Shown: positions 16,836 through 31,368 of the stretch, piece after piece
Layout: each line of letters starts with the position of its first letter
How positions within the stretch are numbered: the first letter of the stretch is position 1
Position numbers and translations under genes: made by a program
Assembly: GCA_021833625.1 (NCBI GenBank)
Contig: JAKBEU010000002.1
Span: 259,332 to 323,331 of the forward strand
Length of the DNA: 64,000 bases
Source of the DNA: a bacterium
Lineage (GTDB): Bacteria > Patescibacteriota > Microgenomatia > UBA1406 > GWC2-37-13
Reading direction: 5' to 3'
Notes under the pieces: generated by a model
Seen by the model: only the letters and a program-made list of their open reading frames with translations
Told to the model about the DNA's origin: nothing
Databases searched by the model: none

Positions 16836-17718
16836 AGGTTTGTTTCAAATAATTGTTATTAATAACAGATCCTAAAAACCATGCGCTTATTGCTTTTAAG
16901 CGTAGCAGAAATCGCAACAAAAAGAGAGCGAATTTTGAATAATGTTTTTTATAAAAGAACAGAAATCCGCGGTAGACCTGAAGGATAGGAAAGGTTTTTC
17001 CGCTACTTGATGCCGAGCCCAAATGAACAATGCGTGACTTCGGATAAAAGTAAGTATTCATACCCATCTTCCTTGCCCGATAGAGCAAGTCGACCTCTTC
17101 CATATACATAAAGATTGTCTCATCAAATCCTCCTACTTTTTCGAAATACTCTTTTTTCGTCATGATTGCGGCTCCCGAAACCCATCCGACCTTCCTTAGG
17201 GTCTTCGGTGAGGAACGGGTAAGTCCCCAGTAATCCCCGCGAAGAAATAAGGCACCGAATACGACAGGAAGCGTATAAAACGGAGCGGAGGATGGCTGTT
17301 GGGTCATGTCACGATTTAAAAGTTTTGGTCCGATGAAATGCATGATATTTTCGTGTTTTTTATAGAAAATGAAGAGCTTTTGCAGCGCATCCTTAAGGAT
17401 TATCGTGTCGGAGTTCAAAAGGAAGACGTATTTTCCGTTTGCAAGCTTGACGCCCTGGTTATTGGCAGGTCCGAACCCCGTATTGGTTTTGTTTGCGACA
17501 AACGTGATGTTTTTGTGTTTTTTTGCATATTCCGCAAGATATTTGGCGGAATCATCCTTAACCGATGCGTTGTCAATGAGAATAATCTCGAACCGGGGAG
17601 TATCTTTTGACTTATAGCTTCGGAAGGACTTGTAAATCGACTCCAAACACTGATGCGTAATTTTTCTGGTGTTAAAAGAAACAATAACGATAGATAGCTC
17701 AGGTTTTCTTGGCGTCAT
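16804..17718 (-). CDS. Glycosyltransferase family 2
   Basis: 304 aa with LSIVIVSFN, IDNAS.D and LNSD motifs of GT-A family 2. It is the first gene of the minus-strand operon. Confidence 0.85.
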   Translation of the reverse strand: MTPRKPELSIVIVSFNTRKITHQCLESIYKSFRSYKSKDTPRFEIILIDNASVKDDSAKYLAEYAKKHKNITFVANKTNTGFGPANNQGVKLANGKYVFLLNSDTIILKDALQKLFIFYKKHENIMHFIGPKLLNRDMTQQPSSAPFYTLPVVFGALFLRGDYWGLTRSSPKTLRKVGWVSGAAIMTKKEYFEKVGGFDETIFMYMEEVDLLYRARKMGMNTYFYPKSRIVHLGSASSSGKTFPILQVYRGFLFFYKKHYSKFALFLLRFLLRLKAISAWFLGSVINNNYLKQTYEEAFKVAGQ

Positions 17719-20158: not shown

Positions 20159-20866
20159 TCAGTTAAAAAGTTGAATAAATTTTTTAATACGTACATTTGT
20201 CTGACGCTCAAAAATATCCGTCGGGGAGCCCTTTGCAACAATTCTTCCTTTTTCCATAAAAATAACCGTGTCCGCAATCTGCCGTATAAACGCCATTTCA
20301 TGAGAAGCAATGACTATTGTCATATTATCGCGTGCCAACTGTCGTATAACGGAAAGCACTTCGTTTGTCAGCTCCGGGTCAAGGGCCGAGGTGGGTTCAT
20401 CAAACAAAAGCACTTCCGGATTCATGGCAAGGGCACGTGCTATCGCAACCCGTTGAGTCTGTCCTCCGGAGAGTTCGGAGGGGTACTGATTTGCCTTATC
20501 GGATAGTCCCACCTTTGCAAGAAGACGTTGTCCCGCTTGGTTTGCCTTGGATTTTGAAATGTTGTTGACGATTTGCGGGGCAAGTGTTATGTTTTCAAGC
20601 ACCGTTTTTTGCGGAAATAAATTAAAGTTCTGGAAAACGATGCCCGTCTTTGTCTGCATTTTGGCGTCGGTTATTTTTTTTGAATCAATGCATATTGTTC
20701 CCGAATCAATTTGCTCAAGATTGACAATACAGCGAAGGAGAGTGCTTTTCCCGGCACCTGAGGGCCCGATAAGTCCAATGACCTGGCCCTTTTTTATTTC
20801 AAGGGAAACGTCCTGTAATACGGGCGTATCTTTGAATTGTTTTGAAATATTTCGTACGGAAATCAT
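20159..20866 (-). CDS. Polar amino-acid ABC transporter ATP-binding protein
   Basis: 235 aa with Walker A GPSGAGKST, signature LSGGQTQRVAIARAL and Walker B LLFDEPTSALD. Confidence 0.9.
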   Translation of the reverse strand: MISVRNISKQFKDTPVLQDVSLEIKKGQVIGLIGPSGAGKSTLLRCIVNLEQIDSGTICIDSKKITDAKMQTKTGIVFQNFNLFPQKTVLENITLAPQIVNNISKSKANQAGQRLLAKVGLSDKANQYPSELSGGQTQRVAIARALAMNPEVLLFDEPTSALDPELTNEVLSVIRQLARDNMTIVIASHEMAFIRQIADTVIFMEKGRIVAKGSPTDIFERQTNVRIKKFIQLFN

Positions 20867-20872
20867 AAGATT

Positions 20873-21532
20873 TTATTTTGTATATTGAATGCGGAATCGG
20901 GAAGTTCTTTCTTCGATTTTTTTAAATAACAGGACAACGGCTCCGTTAAAGAGGAGATACAATATGCCGGCAATAATAAACGGTTCCATTGAAAAATCCC
21001 GCATAAGAATTACCCGGGCAGACTTCAGGATGTCATCCATTCCGATTGTTGAAAGAAGGGAAGTTCCCCAAATTGCCTCAATTGCCTGATTGCAAAGACT
21101 GGGAAGGGCCGTCACAAGAGCCTGCGGAAAAATGACGGTAAACATTATCTGGAAATAATTCATCCCGAGCACTTTTCCCGCCTCATACTGTCCCTTATCA
21201 ATTCCTTCGATGTTTCCGCGGATTATTTCACTCATATAAATAGTCCATGAGTTGATGAACGCAAGGGAGGCGGCACAAAAAGGGGAGAGCTGTATTTTGA
21301 ACATAATCGGTACTCCGAAATAAACAAATATAAGCTGAAACAAAAGGGGAGTCCCCCGGACCAGAGTCGTGTACACTCCCAGTATCGCATTCACAAAACG
21401 GTTATTCATTTTCCTGACGAATGCAACAAGGACGGCCAAGGGAAGAGAAAACACGACTGTTACAAGCCATACCAAGAATGTCACCAGTCCTCCTTGGAGT
21501 AAATAGAGTATTGTCGGTCCGAGGGTATTCAT
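20873..21532 (-). CDS. Polar amino-acid ABC transporter permease
   Basis: HisM/GlnP-type permease (EAIWGTSLLSTIGMDDILK region). The start is set at ATG 21532 (MNTLGPTILY). Confidence 0.85.
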   Translation of the reverse strand: MNTLGPTILYLLQGGLVTFLVWLVTVVFSLPLAVLVAFVRKMNNRFVNAILGVYTTLVRGTPLLFQLIFVYFGVPIMFKIQLSPFCAASLAFINSWTIYMSEIIRGNIEGIDKGQYEAGKVLGMNYFQIMFTVIFPQALVTALPSLCNQAIEAIWGTSLLSTIGMDDILKSARVILMRDFSMEPFIIAGILYLLFNGAVVLLFKKIEERTSRFRIQYTK

Positions 21533-21539
21533 ACAAAAA

Positions 21540-22343
21540 TTATTTAACAAGTAAATCGTCACTTCCAAACCATTTGATGGCGAGTGCATTAATACTTTTA
21601 TCCGCTTTCATTTGGGAGAGGGCTTGATTTATCTTTGTCTGTAGATCGGTATCGGACTTTCTCATCCCCACTCCGCTATATGTTGTTCCATAGTTGCCCG
21701 AAATAGCCTTGACTTTTGGGGCGTTCTTTAAAACTTGGGATGCCGTATAGAGACCCGCAAAATTATCGGCAAAGACGGCATCAACCCGTCCCGTTTTCAT
21801 GTCAAGAAGCGCTGCCTGTATGGTGTCATACGACTTGATTTCCTTAAAAGAACTTTTGAACGGATCCTTGGAAAGAGTGTCTTCTTGTTCCGATCCTGCC
21901 TGAAGTCCTATTGTTTTCCCCGCAAGGTCTTCTTTTTTGGTAACGGAAAAATCTTTTACGATAAAAACATTCTCCCCTTTCAGATAAGGATTTGAAAAAT
22001 TGATCTGTGCTTTCCGTTTGTCGGTTATGGTCATGCCGTTCCAAATAACATCGATATCCTTTTTGTTAAGACTTAAAATAACGCTGTCCCACACGACGGG
22101 TTTGAAAACAGGCGTGTATCCCATTCGTTTTATTGCTTCTCTTGCGAGCTCAACATCAAAGCCGGTAAGCTCGCCGCTTTTTGTCCTAAATCCAATAGGG
22201 GGGAAGGCGTCATCCAACCCGATAACTATTGTTTTTAACTCCTTAAATTGCTGCGTTTTTTTTGTTTTGTTGAATGCAAAAAAACCAAGCAAGATGAGAA
22301 CGACGAGAAAAATAGGTATTACTGTCTTTTTGTTTAGTTTCAT
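21540..22343 (-). CDS. Amino-acid ABC transporter substrate-binding protein (SBP family 3), N-terminally anchored
   Basis: SBP_bac_3-like (GFDVELAREAIKRMG, WNGMTITDKR). The start is set at ATG 22343 (MKLNKKTVIPIFLVVLILLGFF signal/anchor). The 85-codon upstream extension in the ORF track looks non-coding. Confidence 0.85.
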   Translation of the reverse strand: MKLNKKTVIPIFLVVLILLGFFAFNKTKKTQQFKELKTIVIGLDDAFPPIGFRTKSGELTGFDVELAREAIKRMGYTPVFKPVVWDSVILSLNKKDIDVIWNGMTITDKRKAQINFSNPYLKGENVFIVKDFSVTKKEDLAGKTIGLQAGSEQEDTLSKDPFKSSFKEIKSYDTIQAALLDMKTGRVDAVFADNFAGLYTASQVLKNAPKVKAISGNYGTTYSGVGMRKSDTDLQTKINQALSQMKADKSINALAIKWFGSDDLLVK

Positions 22344-22575: not shown

Positions 22576-22896
22576 ATGAAACAACCTCCTGAGTACAAAC
22601 AGGTAGAGCGGTATACCCCAACCGACAGAAAAGAAAAGCAGCTTATCAGGGCATTTTCACTCCTTAATGACGAAAAAATCGCATCCGCATTTCTTCGTGA
22701 CCTGCTGACTCAAGCGGAAATAGAAGAGTTTGCTAACAGGCTTGAAATCGTTTTTTTACTGAAAAAAGGATGGTCTTACCTTGATATCGCAAAGAAAACA
22801 AATGTCTCAACAACGACCGTTACCCGCGTAGCCCATTGGTTTTTCCATGGCTGCGGGGGCTACAAGACGATAGTCGATAAGCTTTCCGCCTCATAA
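22576..22896 (+). CDS. TrpR/YerC-YecD-family helix-turn-helix regulator
   Basis: 106 aa. It shows the pattern LLTQAEIEEFANRLEIVFLLKKGWSYLDIAKKTNVSTTTVTRV, typical of Trp-repressor-like proteins. Confidence 0.75.
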   Translation: MKQPPEYKQVERYTPTDRKEKQLIRAFSLLNDEKIASAFLRDLLTQAEIEEFANRLEIVFLLKKGWSYLDIAKKTNVSTTTVTRVAHWFFHGCGGYKTIVDKLSAS

Positions 22897-26344: not shown

Positions 26345-28294
26345 TTAAAATAGAAGAAAAAGAGCAAGAAAAAATAAAGGAGATGTGCAAAGAACAACGA
26401 AGCGCGCTTCATTATTGTTGAAAACGCTTATTATTTTTTGAGATGTATGGGATGCGAGAAGGAGGGGATGGGTAATGAGTTCTTTTTTATTCAATTGGTG
26501 GACTGTTTGGATGACAAAAGGGTCCGTATGAAGGACAAGTTGGGAAGAATAATCAATATCCTTTATGGAAAGTTCAAGCGTATAGGTTTTATTTTTTGAA
26601 TCGGCAATCACCGGGAACCCGAAAGGATAGGAAGTGCTTTCCCCGATTTGTGCGGGTGTCGTTTCTTGGGATGCGTACCACTTTTCATTTCCCGCCTCTT
26701 TTATTCTGATGAGAAATTTCTGATTTTTATTCGGATCAATGGGCACCATTCTTTTCTCTTTTCCTCCTACAACATTTGTAAGGTGGAGAGTCACGATACC
26801 TAAATTATCTTCTTTGGAGACAAAAGAAAACTGTAACGGCTTTTCTGATAAGGGAAGAGGTTTTTTTCCGGGGTTCGTTTGAAAAACGACATTATCTTTG
26901 GAATATTTTTTCTCTGCGGAAAAAAAGTTAAAGTTTGAAGTATATGCGGAAAGGATAAGAAAGATAAAAAATAGTATAAAAATAAGATTTGCAATTTTGA
27001 CGTTCTGAAATGACAAATGTGCTCCTGTACTTTTTGGGGTTTTGTACTGGAAATACAGAGTCTCAACGATAAGATGAAGAGCATAGGAGACACCGAGAAA
27101 AACGGTTGCGGTAAGAAGAAGAAAGAGAATGTTGGTTATCATATTTGTCGGCCGGAAAAGAAGATGCATGCCGTCAACTATTGCGGTATGGGAGATATAC
27201 ATTGAATAACTAATAGTTCCCAAGAAAACGAGAATAGGGGACGAAAAGAATTTGCTGAGTGGCGTATCGGTGTCCATAATTCCCCATACGATAAGACCGA
27301 ATGGAATTGACCAGAGAATTCGGTAAAGAAGCGTAACGTGAGAAGAGGAGCCGAGCGTCAGAAAACAGATGAAGAGCAGAATAAAAAACAAAAGAGGTGA
27401 AAACATTTTTTTTACCTTGTCGGGCAATGGGATAGTGACATTTTTTTTCACGAAATATGCAACCGTAATGCCGGAGAAAAAATAGATGAAGAAATCGATA
27501 AGCAACATGCCAAACCCTCGGACGTGTTTCATAAGAAGTGCCGTACCAAAAAAGAAGGGAATAAGGGAAACAAGAAAGATTATGATGAATGCTTTCGATT
27601 TTGCAGCTATTTTCTTTGCGTTAGGTGCAATGAGGAAGGGATAGATAAGATAAAATAGTACTTCAGGAACAAGACTCCAATAGACTCCGTCAAGCATGGG
27701 AATATAATCACCAAACGGAAGGGTGAGTGTTCCGTTCACCGCGCTTATCGTTCCTGTCCTTAATGCGAAAGGAAGAGAGGAAAACCATGCGGCCGGTTTT
27801 CGCACGATGACAAAACCGTACCAAAAAGCTACCAAAAATTGAAGGCCCAAAAAAAGACGTATAAATAATCCTCCCAGTCTAAATCTTTGAACGACATGTG
27901 TCCATATTGTCCGTGTGACAAGTGCCGCAAAGAGAATGGTTGCTATGCGGAGGAAGAGTGATAAGGTAGGAATAAGACTGAACACACTCATACAAAACAC
28001 CATCGTAAGAAACGGAGGGAATATACGGGCATACCGTTTTTCGATGAATTCCATCGGGAGCGGCTCAGCATATAGATATGCCATTAAGAAACCGGAAAGT
28101 ACAAAAAAGAAAGCGACTCCCAAAGTCCCGCTGGAAAACATAAATCGGCACAGCGGCTGCAGAAATGTGGGAAGCGCAGACACGATATACCTCGAATCAA
28201 TGTGATTGAGGAATACCAAAACAATGGCAAGTCCCCTCAAACCGTCCAACATATCAAGTCGGCGACTTAATTTTGGGGGGACTGTATGTGTCAT
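26345..28294 (-). CDS. Acyltransferase-3 family membrane protein with extra C-terminal domain
   Basis: 649 aa. It has the N-terminal motif LDGLRGLAIVLVFLNH and about 10 TM helices. A roughly 200-aa non-membrane region and a terminal TM follow. Confidence 0.75.
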   Translation of the reverse strand: MTHTVPPKLSRRLDMLDGLRGLAIVLVFLNHIDSRYIVSALPTFLQPLCRFMFSSGTLGVAFFFVLSGFLMAYLYAEPLPMEFIEKRYARIFPPFLTMVFCMSVFSLIPTLSLFLRIATILFAALVTRTIWTHVVQRFRLGGLFIRLFLGLQFLVAFWYGFVIVRKPAAWFSSLPFALRTGTISAVNGTLTLPFGDYIPMLDGVYWSLVPEVLFYLIYPFLIAPNAKKIAAKSKAFIIIFLVSLIPFFFGTALLMKHVRGFGMLLIDFFIYFFSGITVAYFVKKNVTIPLPDKVKKMFSPLLFFILLFICFLTLGSSSHVTLLYRILWSIPFGLIVWGIMDTDTPLSKFFSSPILVFLGTISYSMYISHTAIVDGMHLLFRPTNMITNILFLLLTATVFLGVSYALHLIVETLYFQYKTPKSTGAHLSFQNVKIANLIFILFFIFLILSAYTSNFNFFSAEKKYSKDNVVFQTNPGKKPLPLSEKPLQFSFVSKEDNLGIVTLHLTNVVGGKEKRMVPIDPNKNQKFLIRIKEAGNEKWYASQETTPAQIGESTSYPFGFPVIADSKNKTYTLELSIKDIDYSSQLVLHTDPFVIQTVHQLNKKELITHPLLLASHTSQKIISVFNNNEARFVVLCTSPLFFLALFLLF

Positions 28295-28299
28295 GAAAA

Positions 28300-29328
28300 T
28301 TAGTAGTGGAACTCTGAATATTTATTCGTGATTCCGATTCTTTCCCTTACCTCCATCATTTTTTTTGCGGCCTGAACGCGTGCTTTTTCGGCACCTTCCC
28401 TCAAAATATCTTTTATCTTCTCAGGGTTCGATTTTAATTCATTATAGAGTGCCCTTTCTTTTTTGAATTTGGTCAGGATTGCGAATATAAGTTTTTCTTT
28501 GACTTCCATATCGGAAACGGTTCCCGTTGTGTATCTCTTTTCAAGATCAGCAACCTCATCCTTATTATCATTTAACAGTCTATGGTAAGTAAATACGGGA
28601 TTACCCTCAACACTTCCCGGGTCGGTTACCTTTTTCCGGTTCGGGTCAGTGTAACAACTCATTATCTGTTTTCGGATTATTTTTTCATCCGCAAAAACGG
28701 CAATATAATTATTCAAACTTTTACTCATCTTCCGTTTTCCCTCCGTTCCCACAAGACGTGCGCTTTCCTTAATGTTGTAAATATCGGGAAGAACAAATGT
28801 TTCGCCGTATGTTTTATTAAAAAATCCGGCAACATCGCGCGCAATTTCAATATGCTGTTTTTGATCATCCCCAACGGGAACATAATCAGGGCCATAGAGC
28901 AGAATATCTGCCGCCATCAGGATGGGATAGGAAAAAAGACCCATATTAATATCTTCCGGATCGGTTCCTTTTTGCAGTTTATCCTTATACGCATGTGCCC
29001 GCTTTATCAGTGCAAGGGGAGTCACGTTATTCAAAATACTTTGCAACTCTGTATGCTCCGTGATATCCGACTGGCGGTAAAATACGACTTTTTTCGTATC
29101 GATACCGAATGCCAGGTAAGACAAAACAAGATTCTCGACGTTCCGTTGCAGTTCCAGTTTATTCTGCACTGTTGTCAGTGCATGTAAATCCGCAATAAAG
29201 AAATATATTTTATCGGCATTTTTTTGCAGTTCCAAAAAAGGAACAACGGCACCCAAATAGTTGCCGATATGCACCTCTCCGCTGCCTGACGGGGTGATCC
29301 CCGTTAATATAGAGTAATTGTTTTTCAT
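28300..29328 (-). CDS. trpS: Tryptophan--tRNA ligase
   Basis: 342 aa. Class I motifs are present: a HIGN variant (GEVHIGNYLG) and KMSKS (RKMSKSL). Confidence 0.95.
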   Translation of the reverse strand: MKNNYSILTGITPSGSGEVHIGNYLGAVVPFLELQKNADKIYFFIADLHALTTVQNKLELQRNVENLVLSYLAFGIDTKKVVFYRQSDITEHTELQSILNNVTPLALIKRAHAYKDKLQKGTDPEDINMGLFSYPILMAADILLYGPDYVPVGDDQKQHIEIARDVAGFFNKTYGETFVLPDIYNIKESARLVGTEGKRKMSKSLNNYIAVFADEKIIRKQIMSCYTDPNRKKVTDPGSVEGNPVFTYHRLLNDNKDEVADLEKRYTTGTVSDMEVKEKLIFAILTKFKKERALYNELKSNPEKIKDILREGAEKARVQAAKKMMEVRERIGITNKYSEFHY

Positions 29329-29359
29329 AGTGTTATTATAACCTATAAATCAAAACGTA

Positions 29360-30553
29360 TTATTTCGATAAAAATGTGTTAAAAATATACTCGACATCCT
29401 TGTCTCCCCGCCCGGAAAGATTGATGACAACTATTTTTTCTTTCGCAAGTCGTGCGGCAAGACGGATTCCGTATGCGACCGCGTGAGCGCTTTCCAGGGC
29501 CGGAATAATTCCTTCCGTCTTTGAAAGAAGCGAAAATGCGGCAACTGCCTGAGCGTCGGTAATGCTTGCCAGTTCGATTCTTTTTGTGTCTTTCAGATAA
29601 GCAAGCTCCGGTCCAACACCTGGATAATCAAGACCGGATGCGGCGCTGTATGATTTACCTATCTCACCTTTTTTGTCGTGGAGGATTAGCGTTTTGAATC
29701 CATGGATGACATCAATACTTCCTTTTCCGAGTGACACTCCGTGTCTTCCCGTTTTTACTCCCAACCCTGCAGGTTCAACTGCCACAAGATGAACGGATGC
29801 GTCGTTGATAAAAGAATAAAACGCTCCCATGGCATTGCTTCCTCCGCCGACACATGCCACGACATAATCGGGAAGTTTCTTTTCGTTTTGTAAAATTTGT
29901 TCCCTCATTTCTTCTCCGATAATCTTTTGGAAGTCGCGTACCATTGTCGGGTAGGGGTGCGGTCCGACGGCAGAGCCCAAGAGATAATATGCCTCAGGAT
30001 CCTGCGCATATGCCATGAGCGCGCTGTCGACTGCGTCTTTGAGCGTCTGTTGTCCATTCGTGACCTTTATTACTTTTGCTCCCAATATTTTTATGCGGTA
30101 TACGTTTGGTTTCTCATTTTCCATGTCACGTGCTCCCATATAGATGTCGCACTTCATGCCAAATAGTGCAGCAACAGTTGCCGTTGCAACACCGTGTTGT
30201 CCTGCCCCAGTTTCTGCAATAAGCTTTTTCTTTCCCATATATTTTGCAACAAGCGCCTGGCCTAATGCATTATTGATCTTATGTGCTCCGGTGTGATTTA
30301 AATCTTCGCGTTTGAGAAAAATCTTTGCCCCCTTTTGTTTGCGGGTAAGATTTTGCGCAAAATAAAAAGAACTGGGCCGATTTGCATACTCCCTTAATAA
30401 CAACTTCAGTCGGGATTGGAATGCCGCATCGTTTTTGAGTTTGCCGTACGCAACTGCCAGGTCATTTAATGGCTTCTCAAGCGGGGGAGGAACAAATATT
30501 CCTCCATACTTCCCGAAAAATCCCGAGGTGTCCGGTTGATTATAGATATCCAT
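29360..30553 (-). CDS. trpB: Tryptophan synthase beta chain (TrpB1-length, stand-alone in this window)
   Basis: 397 aa with LKREDLNHTGAHKINN (PLP Lys) and GGGSNAMG. No trpA is adjacent. Confidence 0.95.
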   Translation of the reverse strand: MDIYNQPDTSGFFGKYGGIFVPPPLEKPLNDLAVAYGKLKNDAAFQSRLKLLLREYANRPSSFYFAQNLTRKQKGAKIFLKREDLNHTGAHKINNALGQALVAKYMGKKKLIAETGAGQHGVATATVAALFGMKCDIYMGARDMENEKPNVYRIKILGAKVIKVTNGQQTLKDAVDSALMAYAQDPEAYYLLGSAVGPHPYPTMVRDFQKIIGEEMREQILQNEKKLPDYVVACVGGGSNAMGAFYSFINDASVHLVAVEPAGLGVKTGRHGVSLGKGSIDVIHGFKTLILHDKKGEIGKSYSAASGLDYPGVGPELAYLKDTKRIELASITDAQAVAAFSLLSKTEGIIPALESAHAVAYGIRLAARLAKEKIVVINLSGRGDKDVEYIFNTFLSK

Positions 30554-30617
30554 ATTATTATAAATTTGAAATTTTAAATTAAAAATGGTGAGGTTAGATG
30601 TGAAATGAAGTGGTGGC

Positions 30618-30875
30618 TTATCGCCAATTGGAAGAGAAGTTACCCTTGCTTATTTCTTTTGATCCGCGGGTCACGGTTGCGACTCCTACTCCTAGTTTTG
30701 CCGCAATTGTGTGCTGAGGGATTCCTTTTTTCAACATTTTAACAATTTGAAGACGCGTCGGAATTTCGGCAAGCTCTTTTGGGGTAAGAATCCCCACAAG
30801 GAAGTTCCTTAGTTCTTTTTTTGACTTCAGGCGGGTAATTTCTTCCACCAATTCGGTAATGTATGTATTATCCAT
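30618..30875 (-). CDS. TrpR/YerC-YecD-family helix-turn-helix regulator (second paralogue)
   Basis: 85 aa. It shows the pattern ILTPKELAEIPTRLQIVKMLKKGIPQHTIAAKLGVGVATVTRG and lies directly upstream of trpB-trpS. Confidence 0.75.
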   Translation of the reverse strand: MDNTYITELVEEITRLKSKKELRNFLVGILTPKELAEIPTRLQIVKMLKKGIPQHTIAAKLGVGVATVTRGSKEISKGNFSSNWR

Positions 30876-30882
30876 GTGTACT

Positions 30883-30912
30883 ATTATACTAGTATGCTAG
30901 TATATCTGTCAA
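30883..30912 (-). promoter_or_regulatory. Consensus promoter (TTGACA-18-TATAAT) with an embedded CTAG-type palindromic operator, ending 7 nt before the ATG
   Basis: On the minus strand, TTGACA is at 30912-30907 and TATAAT at 30888-30883, with the ATG at 30875. The palindrome TATACTAGTATGCTAGTATA (plus strand 30885-30904) fills the spacer and overlaps the -10. Confidence 0.65.
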
Positions 30913-30918
30913 GAGGCA

Positions 30919-31368
30919 TTAGGAAAGTTCTTTTGAGTCGAGAAAAAAAGTGACAGGACCATCATAGGTGAGCGATATCTGCATATGTGCTCCAAATACT
31001 CCCTTTTGGACAGGAATACCGGATTGTCCTAGGAGGGCACCGAAGTTCTCATACATTTTTTCTGCTGTCTGTGGTTCCATCGCAGGAAAAAAATCTGGTC
31101 GTCGTCCTCCTTTAATATTTGAACACAGTGTAAATTGGGAAATGAGGAGTATTGAGCCTTTTGATTCTAAGATAGATTTGTTCATCTTTCCGTTCTCATC
31201 CGCGTTAATGCGAAGATGAATAATCTTTTCTGATAATTTTTTTATGTCTTCAACCGTGTCGTCTTTTGCAACCCCTAAAAAGATGATATATCCGCTCTCG
31301 ATGGAAGAGTGCTTTTTTTGATTAACAAAAACTGCCGCATCTGTCACTCGTTGTACAATTGCTTTCAT
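30919..31368 (-). CDS. dtd: D-aminoacyl-tRNA deacylase
   Basis: 149 aa, with MKAIVQRV at the N-terminus and the SQFTL and GPVT motifs. Confidence 0.9.
   Translation of the reverse strand: MKAIVQRVTDAAVFVNQKKHSSIESGYIIFLGVAKDDTVEDIKKLSEKIIHLRINADENGKMNKSILESKGSILLISQFTLCSNIKGGRRPDFFPAMEPQTAEKMYENFGALLGQSGIPVQKGVFGAHMQISLTYDGPVTFFLDSKELS

Follow-up and report, generated by a model that had tools for sequence, protein, structure and literature searches.

Does a CTAG palindrome inside a consensus promoter act as the operator of the small Trp-repressor-like protein encoded just behind it, and which signal would that protein sense? The locus lies in a 64-kb window (the whole stretch of DNA analyzed here, 64,000 nucleotides) from a tiny-genome, groundwater-type bacterium of the Candidate Phyla Radiation. 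A sequence-only reading had proposed a TrpR-type operator inside a leaderless-type promoter, ahead of a TrpR-family gene with trpB and trpS behind it, and our analysis bore out this arrangement. We think it quite likely that positions 30878-30903 are the operator of the adjoining 85-aa repressor, and that this repressor controls its own synthesis as part of a leaderless, tryptophan-corepressed trpR-trpB-trpS unit. The promoter region contains the following features.

30907..30912, minus strand: -35 hexamer TTGACA of the trpR promoter, beginning 6 nt past the dtd stop codon
30883..30888, minus strand: -10 hexamer TATAAT of trpR, 18 nt past the -35 and 7 nt ahead of the ATG
30878..30903 (26 bp), no strand assigned: probable operator with three boxes at a period of 8, spanning the spacer and the -10, up to the start point
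30900-30897, read on the minus strand: operator box 1, CTAG
30892-30889, read on the minus strand: operator box 2, CTAG
30884-30881, read on the minus strand: operator box 3, ATAG, degenerate (AATAGT, 30884-30879)
30903-30886, minus-strand reading: predicted dimer site A, ATACTAGCATACTAGTAT
30895-30878, minus-strand reading: predicted dimer site B, ATACTAGTATAATAGTAC, overlapping site A

We found that the trpR promoter matches the consensus at 12 of 12 positions and is the only promoter in the window to do so in a promoter scan. The minus strand from 30912 to 30873 reads TTGACA, then gatatactagcatactag (18 nt), TATAAT, agtacac (7 nt) and ATG (30875-30873). With both strands scanned, this is the single occurrence of TTGACA-N16-18-TATAAT in the 64 kb. 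The plus strand carries the palindrome TATACTAG-TATG-CTAGTATA (30885-30904), in which both 8-nt arms are perfect. The three boxes together make an overlapping GNACT...AGTNC pattern, which we read as sites A and B. The third box, 8 bp downstream of box 2, is an addition to the two boxes described in the sequence-only reading.

The operator sequence is rare. CTAG is depleted 3.6-fold in the window (32 observed vs 115.5 expected), and CTAG-N4-CTAG occurs once, whereas the real CTAG density would predict ~0.016 occurrences and Markov-1 simulations 0.22. The only exact match to ACTAGNNNNCTAGT is at the trpR operator. Based on these three observations, a chance origin of the operator is unlikely. 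Scanning the 64-kb window with a position-weight matrix gave a score of 35.6 at the trpR operator, compared to 10.7 for the best unrelated site, and we found no second operator in that scan.

The operator is also conserved. We compared 14 non-redundant orthologous promoters, whose encoded proteins are 51-96% identical. The -35 hexamer TTGACA was unchanged in all of them (14/14), and box 2 (TACTAGTA) was invariant. Loss of the palindrome upstream of orthologues had been named beforehand as a result that would count against an operator; instead, the element was conserved there. Related loci totalling 215 kb contained 23 CTAG-N4-CTAG pairs, vs ~0.3 expected. Every one of the 23 was placed at a trpR promoter or, in loci L008 and L011, at the head of a trpR-containing operon.

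Conservation might also arise with no operator present, through shared ancestry, an effect on promoter strength, or chance. Several of the loci come from related Microgenomates, and promoter hexamers are conserved anyway. However, conservation across the 14 promoters was 0.85 in the spacer and only 0.50, the background value, in the 18 nt upstream of the -35. CTAG is a depleted word, and yet its pairs in the 215 kb were confined to trpR promoters and operon heads. Furthermore, distant homologues (L055, L076, L008, L011) kept the boxes and shifted their position relative to the -10 and the ATG, which is unlike a pure promoter feature. We consider the absence of an operator very unlikely.

Box 3 is less constant than box 2. 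Its half-site is lost in some relatives (TATAATGATA), and it is degenerate here, so a second dimer may not bind everywhere. A metagenome-wide scan with TACTAGNNTACTAGTA returned at least 120 loci, most of them unrelated TACTAG-rich DNA, and among the matches listed only 8 loci had a TrpR-family ORF. The scan is therefore of no use as a test of enrichment; it did provide extra orthologous promoters.

The protein that would bind this site is encoded immediately behind the promoter.

30618..30875, minus strand: trpR-type gene, 85 aa, minimal Trp-repressor family, helices A-E

We found that the 85-aa protein belongs with TrpR. It matched the Pfam family Trp_repressor (PF01371) with 70.5 bits (cut-off 27, E = 1.3e-19, residues 7-79). 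Its best NCBIfam model was TrpR (TIGR01321), with 46.6 bits, which is below the equivalog cut-off of 67.25 bits that marks orthologues of proteobacterial TrpR. The sequence-only reading had assigned the protein to a "poorly characterised YerC/YecD-like family", and this assignment failed. The protein missed the cut-off of TIGR02531 (yecD_yerC; 37.2 vs 42.2 bits), scoring higher with the TrpR model, and all 33 aligned relatives (33/33) matched TIGR01321 (best E 5.6e-17, vs 2.9e-13 for yecD_yerC). The recognition helix reads G-V-A-T-V-T-R-G-S, as is characteristic of TrpR, and not S-T-x-T-x-S/T-R-V as in YerC. Nor is YerC poorly characterised: YerC/YecD has been identified as HisR, the histidine repressor of Firmicutes, with a motif of the TTTA-N6-TAAA type (PMC9413887). 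The TIGR02531 score, the recognition helix, the CTAG operator and the trpB and trpS neighbours together rule out a YerC/YecD (HisR) identity. Judged by its sequence, the 85-aa family is a minimal TrpR, distinct from the YerC/HisR of the same genome, and we have corrected the annotation.

We also compared the protein with TrpR at the level of the fold, which in TrpR comprises helices A-F with a helix-turn-helix formed by D and E. A single-chain AlphaFold2 model of the protein (pLDDT 92.5) had five helices, A-E, and matched E. coli TrpR (PDB 1TRO, 1ZT9, 2OZ9) with TM-scores of 0.76-0.79 and an rmsd of 1.8 A. Fold comparison did not separate TrpR from YerC, since both matched; the two were told apart by sequence signatures and HMM scores. 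HisR structures (PDB 3KOR, 3FRW, 3G1C) share the Pfam family and the fold (TM-score 0.72-0.74). HisR proteins are similarly short and have palindromic operators of ~20 bp, and the whole-sequence score of the 85-aa protein to 3KOR (33.7 bits) was slightly above that to E. coli TrpR (28.2 bits). In contrast, HisR has Val in place of Gly85, the S-T-x-T-x-S/T-R-V helix, and an operator of the form cacTTTAnnnnnnTAAAgtg in the context of his genes, compared to the CTAG operator with trpB and trpS here. The conserved Tyr of HisR was assigned to the Arg69 position (PMC9413887). In our alignment the YerC-type Tyr falls at E. coli Q68, one residue off that assignment, and the 85-aa protein has Q-H at Q68-R69.

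The window contains a separate paralogue of 106 aa, at 22576-22896, that does pass TIGR02531 (48.9 bits, cut-off 42.2). Its promoter carries another palindrome, 30 bp long, and it lies next to an amino-acid ABC transporter; its sequence suggests that it takes the YerC/HisR role, apart from the 85-aa protein. With two paralogues carrying related helix-turn-helix motifs in one window, the CTAG palindrome might be bound by this paralogue, or by an unrelated factor, with the 85-aa protein acting elsewhere. Against this, the paralogue owns its own palindrome, its helix is HisR-type, and the published HisR motif is not CTAG (PMC9413887). Wherever the 85-aa gene occurred, the CTAG operator accompanied it, also in the loci retrieved through that gene alone. 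Binding by the paralogue or another factor is thus highly improbable, and the 85-aa protein remains our preferred ligand of the site.

The residues that would read the operator are largely those of E. coli TrpR. The DNA-contacting residues of TrpR are R69, I79, A80, T81, T83 and R84 (PMC9413887), and A66, T67, T69 and R70 of the 85-aa protein are identical to A80, T81, T83 and R84. V65 replaces I79, and H55 replaces R69, the one real change. Within the family, T67, T69 and R70 are invariant, and at least 90% of members share A66 and H55. Both proteins fit the helix pattern G-[IV]-A-T-[IV]-T-R-G-S.

We compared the operator with that of E. coli trp. The E. coli core given in the sequence-only reading, ACTAGTTAACTAGT, proved correct: a 65-nt trp promoter/operator sequence matched E. 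coli chromosomes upstream of trpL at 65 of 65 positions. The match of 11 of 14 positions to this core, with equal box spacing, also holds. Both operators have CTAG boxes with an 8-bp period and a -10 between two boxes (CTAG-TTAACT-AGT in E. coli, CTAG-TATAAT-AGT here). By position, the counterpart of the E. coli operator is box 2 plus box 3, which flank the -10. Where relatives have TATACT as their -10, the sequence becomes CTAGTATACTAGTA and agrees with that of E. coli at 12 of 14 positions. For TrpR, the motif TGTAcTnGTnnACnAgTACA with half-site GNACT has been published (PMC9413887); half-sites here differ from E. coli in starting with A or G (ATACT or GTACT).

TrpR of E. coli, which acts at the trpEDCBA, aroH and trpR operators, is autoregulated, as we predict here, and the box array here would fit tandem binding of dimers. 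Such tandem binding is known from the crystal structure PDB 1TRR, one of the fold matches. There are also clear differences. E. coli TrpR has 108 aa with an N-terminal arm and helix F, and the 85-aa protein lacks both. The repressor gene here heads the predicted operon, its promoter is of the leaderless type, and the cargo is an orphan trpB with trpS and not a full biosynthetic operon. We found no trpL-type attenuator here. In E. coli, TrpR is not known to control trpS.

The sequence-only reading had called for a comparison with the corepressor pocket of TrpR, and most of the pocket was kept. We took the roles of pocket residues from two published studies (PMC9413887, PMC8081663). The E. coli pocket consists of T44, R54, R84, G85 and S88, plus the backbone at L41/L43. 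T31, R41, R70 and G71 of the 85-aa protein are invariant and match T44, R54, R84 and G85, and P32, I44 and V45 are also kept (E. coli P45, I57 and V58). Thus, T44, P45, R54, I57, V58, T81, R84 and G85 of the pocket are preserved, mostly invariantly over 33 relatives. L41 is replaced by G28 at a position where only the backbone contacts the ligand. The part that did not stand is Ser88, which is an invariant Glu (E74) in this family. In E. coli, Ser88 contacts the ligand, S88Y blocks Trp binding, and other substitutions there shift the specificity (PMC8081663). Because of the changes of S88 to Glu and of the base-contacting R69 to His, this family could differ from E. coli TrpR in its ligand and in the finer points of DNA recognition.

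The repressor and operator might therefore act as described with an effector other than L-tryptophan: indole, tryptamine, another indole derivative, another amino acid, or none, which would give constitutive autoregulation. There is precedent for a change of ligand in the TrpR fold, as HisR senses histidine (PMC9413887), and in three loci (L008, L011, L022) the orthologue lies beside non-trp genes. On the other hand, the pocket keeps T44, R54, R84 and G85, with Gly85 being Val in the aligned YerC-type sequences, and a Glu in place of Ser88 could still bind an amino acid by pairing with its alpha-ammonium group. The genes linked to the repressor also bear on its signal. Those in the window are the following.

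30615..30626, minus strand: UGG-CGA-UAA-GCC, comprising W84, Arg, the stop codon and three more bases, with nucleotide-level conservation in orthologues
30554..30617, minus strand: trpR-trpB spacer, 64 nt, with a conserved (T)CTAACC block and a T-rich tract
29360..30553, minus strand: trpB, canonical tryptophan synthase beta chain, 397 aa (TIGR00263, 569.9 bits vs cut-off 392)
29335..29340, minus strand: -10 of trpS, TATAAT, 6 nt ahead of the trpS ATG (29328), with no operator boxes
28300..29328, minus strand: trpS, bacterial-type tryptophan--tRNA ligase, 342 aa (TIGR00233, 289.8 bits vs cut-off 176.75)

The order trpR-trpB-(x)-trpS recurs across Microgenomates. We saw no trpA among the genes called beside trpB in the window and the related loci, and no tRNA-Trp gene in the examined loci. 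The separate -10 of trpS noted in the sequence-only reading is present, and its geometry recurs in relatives (L020, L025, L029, L005 and L006). In one relative (L010) the order is trpR-trpE-trpS, and in another (L015) it is trpR...trpE-trpG. The presence of trpE or trpEG behind the repressor gene supports tryptophan as the signal.

We found that the regulated genes are free of Trp codons. TrpB and TrpS together contain no Trp in 739 aa (P ~8e-4). In relatives, all the checked genes that lie between trpR and trpS, insertions among them, also had no Trp, with the exception of TrpE of L010 (2 Trp). The genes next downstream of the unit have 6-10 Trp. Trp-free products are expected of genes that must be expressed when Trp is lacking, and the avoidance concerns Trp specifically. 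Based on the pocket, the linked trpB, trpS, trpE and trpG genes and this codon bias, we consider a non-tryptophan effector quite unlikely, and we favor L-tryptophan as corepressor.

We searched the 64-nt trpR-trpB spacer for regulatory elements. It contained no operator, no -10 at leaderless distance, no Shine-Dalgarno sequence, no terminator and no Rfam match. A search there for a T-box or a leader peptide was also negative, with a fold z-score of -0.78 and no covariation, so attenuation is not supported in this lineage. Rfam matches in the whole window were limited to one tRNA, with none across 28200-31000 at relaxed thresholds. We infer that trpR and trpB are co-transcribed, since the gap is 64 nt and no terminator was found in it.

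These results are most consistent with the following mechanism. Repressor dimers loaded with L-tryptophan would bind in tandem to the two overlapping GNACT-N8-AGTNC sites, covering the consensus sigma-70-type promoter from its spacer through the -10 to the start point. This occlusion would turn off trpR together with trpB, transcribed along with it. Under tryptophan shortage, the repressor would leave the operator, and TrpB from the derepressed operon could make Trp from scavenged indole and serine. Read-through transcripts of trpS would add to the output of its own, unregulated promoter.

A second, translational sensor of tryptophan might reside inside the repressor gene. From trpR through trpS, W84 is the single Trp codon. 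Each TrpR has one Trp codon, at or near its end, in the window and in 12 of 12 orthologues; 9 of the 12 end in W-R-stop, and in the rest the Trp is up to eight codons ahead of the stop. The CGA codon follows W84 in 11 of 13 orthologues, although it makes up only 12% of the window's Arg codons. If ribosomes paused at the single UGG when Trp-tRNA is scarce, the pause could delay release of new repressor, and could keep the 64-nt spacer open and so allow trpB expression. The UGG would then replace the separate Trp-codon leader peptide reported after trpR in other CPR lineages. We regard this sensor as possible but unlikely.

In layout, the trpR-trpB-trpS unit is closest to trpRBA of Chlamydia trachomatis (PMC6504234, PMC7755916). 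There, too, trpR comes first with the operator at its promoter, and trpB follows in the same orientation. By analogy, both may follow an indole-salvage logic in a reduced genome that is unable to make tryptophan from scratch. In contrast to the chlamydial operon, no trpA was seen beside trpB here and trpS is part of the unit. The 348-bp intergenic region of trpRBA, with a second promoter and iron control by YtgR, compares to a 64-nt spacer here, and the lineages are unrelated.

Within the same CPR superphylum, a trp repressor gene has been described at the head of TrpRS operons of Microgenomates, and regulation by tryptophan availability was inferred (Mukai et al. 2017, PMC5370408). Those operons are also headed by a repressor gene and encode a tryptophanyl-tRNA synthetase. 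They differ in having the archaeal-type TrpRS-A, tRNA-Trp(A73) and ORF1, and no operator was described, whereas the loci here have a bacterial-type TrpS and trpB and lack a tRNA-Trp gene.

The locus is probably a classic tryptophan circuit in an unstudied lineage, one that would turn on indole salvage and Trp-tRNA synthetase at low tryptophan. In the Candidate Phyla Radiation, almost no transcription factor-operator pairs are known from experiments. Here, a textbook system allows unusually confident prediction of the protein, its site, the promoter geometry and the likely signal. The 85-aa protein and a 26-bp duplex make a ready test case for regulation in an uncultivated lineage. The Trp-free block from trpR to trpS, including the genes inserted in relatives, is marked as a tryptophan-starvation regulon, and the findings suggest that these episymbiont-type cells scavenge indole.

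The locus was present in mine drainage DNA metagenomes only, and three metatranscriptomes from the same study had zero reads at it. From the sequence, transcription of the unit is predicted to start at or beside the ATG. The predicted 5' UTR of trpR is 0-2 nt, so the mRNA would be effectively leaderless. Consistent with this, the -10 lies 7 nt before the start codon with no Shine-Dalgarno sequence, and the geometry is conserved: orthologues have a promoter spacer of 17-18 nt and a -10 placed 6-9 nt (mode 7) ahead of the ATG. The window as a whole is nearly free of Shine-Dalgarno sequences, and apart from trpR, TATAAT 6-9 nt ahead of the ATG occurs at 6 of its 49 listed long ORFs.

The sequence-only reading had placed an operator palindrome within a consensus trpR promoter, and the sequence is as it described. 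The promoter scored 12/12 in a promoter scan and is the only instance of TTGACA-N16-18-TATAAT in the window. Its surroundings are:

30919-31368, minus strand: dtd, D-Tyr-tRNA deacylase gene
30912-30907, minus strand: -35 TTGACA, starting 6 nt past the dtd stop
between the -35 and the -10, minus strand: promoter spacer gatatactagcatactag
30888-30883, minus strand: -10 TATAAT, followed by agtacac and the trpR ATG (30875)

We found that the plus-strand palindrome, TATACTAG-TATG-CTAGTATA (30885-30904), has perfect 8-nt arms. CTAG is strongly depleted in the window (32 observed vs 115.5 expected), and the two CTAG boxes of the trpR promoter (boxes 1 and 2) are the only pair 8 bp apart (approximately 0.016 expected per window). 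A third, degenerate box, AATAGT, lies 8 bp beyond box 2; on the minus strand the three boxes read ATACTAGC / ATACTAGT / ATAATAGT-AC. The TrpR half-site rule of PMC9413887 (GNACT, partner 8 bp away) predicts two overlapping complete sites in this promoter:

30903-30886: predicted site A, ATACT...AGTAT
30895-30878: predicted site B, ATACT...AGTAC

The E. coli trp promoter/operator sequence that we used matched E. coli chromosomes upstream of trpL (65/65), and the earlier claim that the cores agree at 11/14 positions with identical box spacing is therefore correct. The E. coli -10 (TTAACT) is flanked on each side by a CTAG box (CTAG-TTAACT-AGT), and that of trpR in the window is flanked in matching register by boxes 2 and 3 (CTAG-TATAAT-AGT). 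Relatives with a TATACT -10 read CTAGTATACTAGTA, with 12/14 identity to the E. coli sequence.

We compared 16 loci obtained with the window protein and 14 more obtained with seven further homologues. These came from Roizmanbacteria, Microgenomates, Levyibacteriota, Cerribacteria, Doudnabacteria and the 'Patescibacteria group'; sequencing runs containing the locus were mine-drainage metagenomes. Among 14 non-redundant orthologous promoters, TTGACA and box 2 (TACTAGTA) are invariant, the spacer is 17-18 nt long, the -10 is TATAAT, TATACT or TACAAT, and the distance from the -10 to the ATG is 6-9 nt (mode 7). Conservation is 85% in the spacer, in contrast to 50% in the 18 nt that precede the -35. 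The element is thus conserved upstream of orthologues, so the operator reading withstands the objection of non-conservation. There are 23 CTAG-N4-CTAG pairs in 215 kb of related loci (~0.3 expected), and every one either lies in a trpR promoter or, for loci L008 and L011, heads a trpR-containing operon. In more distant homologues from a metagenome scan (L055 and L076), the GTACTAG...CTAGTAC boxes are retained but shifted relative to the -10 and ATG, so they behave like an operator and not like a promoter-strength element.

The operators at L008 and L011 (L008:545-580 and L011:2540-2575) are E. coli-like, GTACTAGTTTGCTAGTT. Both operons end with a trpR homologue and begin with non-trp genes: in L008, genes for a PEP-utilising, PPDK-like enzyme and for a histidine phosphatase; in L011, an unknown gene together with an AstE/AspA-like one.

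The 85-aa protein matched Pfam Trp_repressor (E = 1.3e-19). It scored 46.6 bits against NCBIfam TrpR, under the strict equivalog cut-off of 67.25, and 37.2 bits against NCBIfam YerC/YecD, under the cut-off of 42.2. All 33 aligned relatives matched the TrpR model (best E = 5.6e-17) as well as yecD_yerC (best E = 2.9e-13). Superposing a structure model (five helices, pLDDT 92.5) gave 1.8 A and TM-scores of 0.76-0.79 against E. coli TrpR, and 2.3 A with TM-scores of 0.72-0.74 against YerC-type structures. Both folds are matched, so fold alone cannot separate the two types.

Unlike the fold, residue signatures do discriminate at the sequence level. The recognition segment of the CPR family is G-[VI]-A-T-V-T-R-G-S; E. 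coli TrpR has G-I-A-T-I-T-R-G-S, and YerC-type proteins have S-T-x-T-x-S/T-R-V. Of the six DNA-contact residues given in PMC9413887, four are the same as in E. coli TrpR, with Val in place of I79 and His in place of R69. Pocket residues, taken from PMC8081663 and standard structural knowledge, are kept at T44, P45, R54, I57, V58, T81, R84 and G85, mostly invariant in the 33 relatives, and S88 is replaced by an invariant Glu. The protein has neither the N-terminal arm nor helix F and is therefore a minimal TrpR. The TrpR-type interpretation of the operator stood, but the assignment of the protein to a YerC/YecD-like family did not, given its sub-threshold score and TrpR-type recognition residues. 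Databases give this protein generic annotation only, and we found no description of this minimal TrpR with its operator in the literature searched.

The window also encodes a second TrpR-family protein:

22576-22896, plus strand: paralogue, 106 aa, passing the YerC/YecD cut-off with 48.9 bits
22512-22541: the paralogue's own 30-bp palindrome, different from that of trpR
20159-22343, minus strand: polar amino-acid ABC transporter genes, divergent from the paralogue

This paralogue has a HisR-type helix, and a TATAAT lies 6 nt ahead of its ATG. YerC has been identified as HisR, a histidine repressor with an operator of the TTTA-N6-TAAA type, validated in vitro (PMC9413887). The paralogue is likely an amino-acid-responsive repressor of uptake, and its signal is possibly histidine. 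Since it passes the YerC/YecD model and has its own palindrome, the two subfamilies coexist, each with its own site.

Synteny of trpR-trpB-(inserted genes)-trpS extends across Microgenomates; at L010, trpE and then trpS come after trpR, and at L015 trpE-trpG does. Mukai et al. (2017; PMC5370408) reported TrpRS operons headed by a trp repressor in Microgenomates and inferred tryptophan control, with no operator described. We found no Trp in the 739 aa of the window's TrpB and TrpS (P ~8e-4, given 0.96% Trp in the window). All genes checked between trpR and trpS in relatives were Trp-free, with the sole exception of L010 TrpE (2 Trp); those free of Trp include 529-aa and 129-aa unknowns, a GNAT, a protein with the histidine-phosphatase fold, and YbaK-TrpS fusions. 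Such composition fits genes that need translation under Trp starvation.

The Trp-free inserts between trpR/trpB and trpS (L017:6511-8486, L027:5317-7374, L005:4485-6172 and L020:6523-7221) encode products of ~528 aa and 129-150 aa without a Pfam match, a 353-aa product, a protein with the histidine-phosphatase fold, and a GNAT acetyltransferase. These genes are candidates for a Trp-starvation regulon. TrpRS in several relatives has an N-terminal YbaK/ProX-type aminoacyl-tRNA editing domain (PF04073; 487-511 aa, also Trp-free):

L017:8470-10005: YbaK-TrpRS fusion
L025:7263-8726: YbaK-TrpRS fusion
L027:7379-8851: YbaK-TrpRS fusion
L029:6542-8008: YbaK-TrpRS fusion

The next genes downstream (acyltransferase, rarA) have 6-10 Trp in the relatives checked, which puts the acyltransferase-3 gene outside the Trp-free block:

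26345-28294, minus strand: acyltransferase-3 gene, beginning 5 nt past the trpS stop, syntenic in relatives

This change in Trp content marks the downstream limit of the regulated block. The separate trpS -10 noted earlier is present, a TATAAT 6 nt ahead of the ATG; several relatives share it, and no boxes accompany it. A promoter of its own makes sense for an essential gene given extra read-through on derepression.

The window is 43% G+C, and Shine-Dalgarno sequences are nearly absent. TATAAT lies 6-9 nt ahead of the ATG in 6/49 long ORFs listed, in addition to trpR (~0.2 expected by estimate), which suggests that leaderless mRNAs are widespread in this Microgenomates-type bacterium. Because the spacing recurs, leaderless transcription looks like a genome-wide habit and not specific to trpR. 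Examples are at 17718, 26319, 29328, 49425, 50131 and 58249.

These observations of sequence anatomy, rarity, conservation, family signatures, gene context and Trp-free cargo point to a circuit in a CPR bacterium that pairs a minimal TrpR with a leaderless promoter carrying an E. coli-type operator. We infer that tandem binding of Trp-loaded dimers to sites A and B, of the kind seen in PDB 1TRR, would obstruct RNA polymerase at this promoter. Loss of Trp would derepress trpR-trpB and add read-through into trpS. TrpB, which has no TrpA partner in any locus examined, would work from scavenged indole, like the trpRBA operon of Chlamydia trachomatis (PMC6504234).

No terminator or attenuator was predicted in the trpR-trpB spacer (30554-30617), and it had no Rfam match. 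Across the trpR stop, UGG-CGA-UAA-GCC (30615-30626, minus strand) shows conservation at the nucleotide level. Its UGG is the sole Trp codon of the trpR-to-trpS unit, and the rare CGA is used in 11/13 orthologues, in contrast to 12% of Arg codons in the window. A conserved (U)CUAACC block (DNA (T)CTAACC) follows. No fold, covariation or Rfam match accounts for either block. The two blocks underlie a further reading, which we consider improbable: a second, translational tryptophan sensor inside trpR.

Terminator-like hairpins with T-runs follow trpR at L002:4268-4345 (CCTCCC-ATATAC-GGGAGG-TTTTTT) and L029:5259-5336, whereas the window spacer has none; some lineages may thus have an extra control layer.
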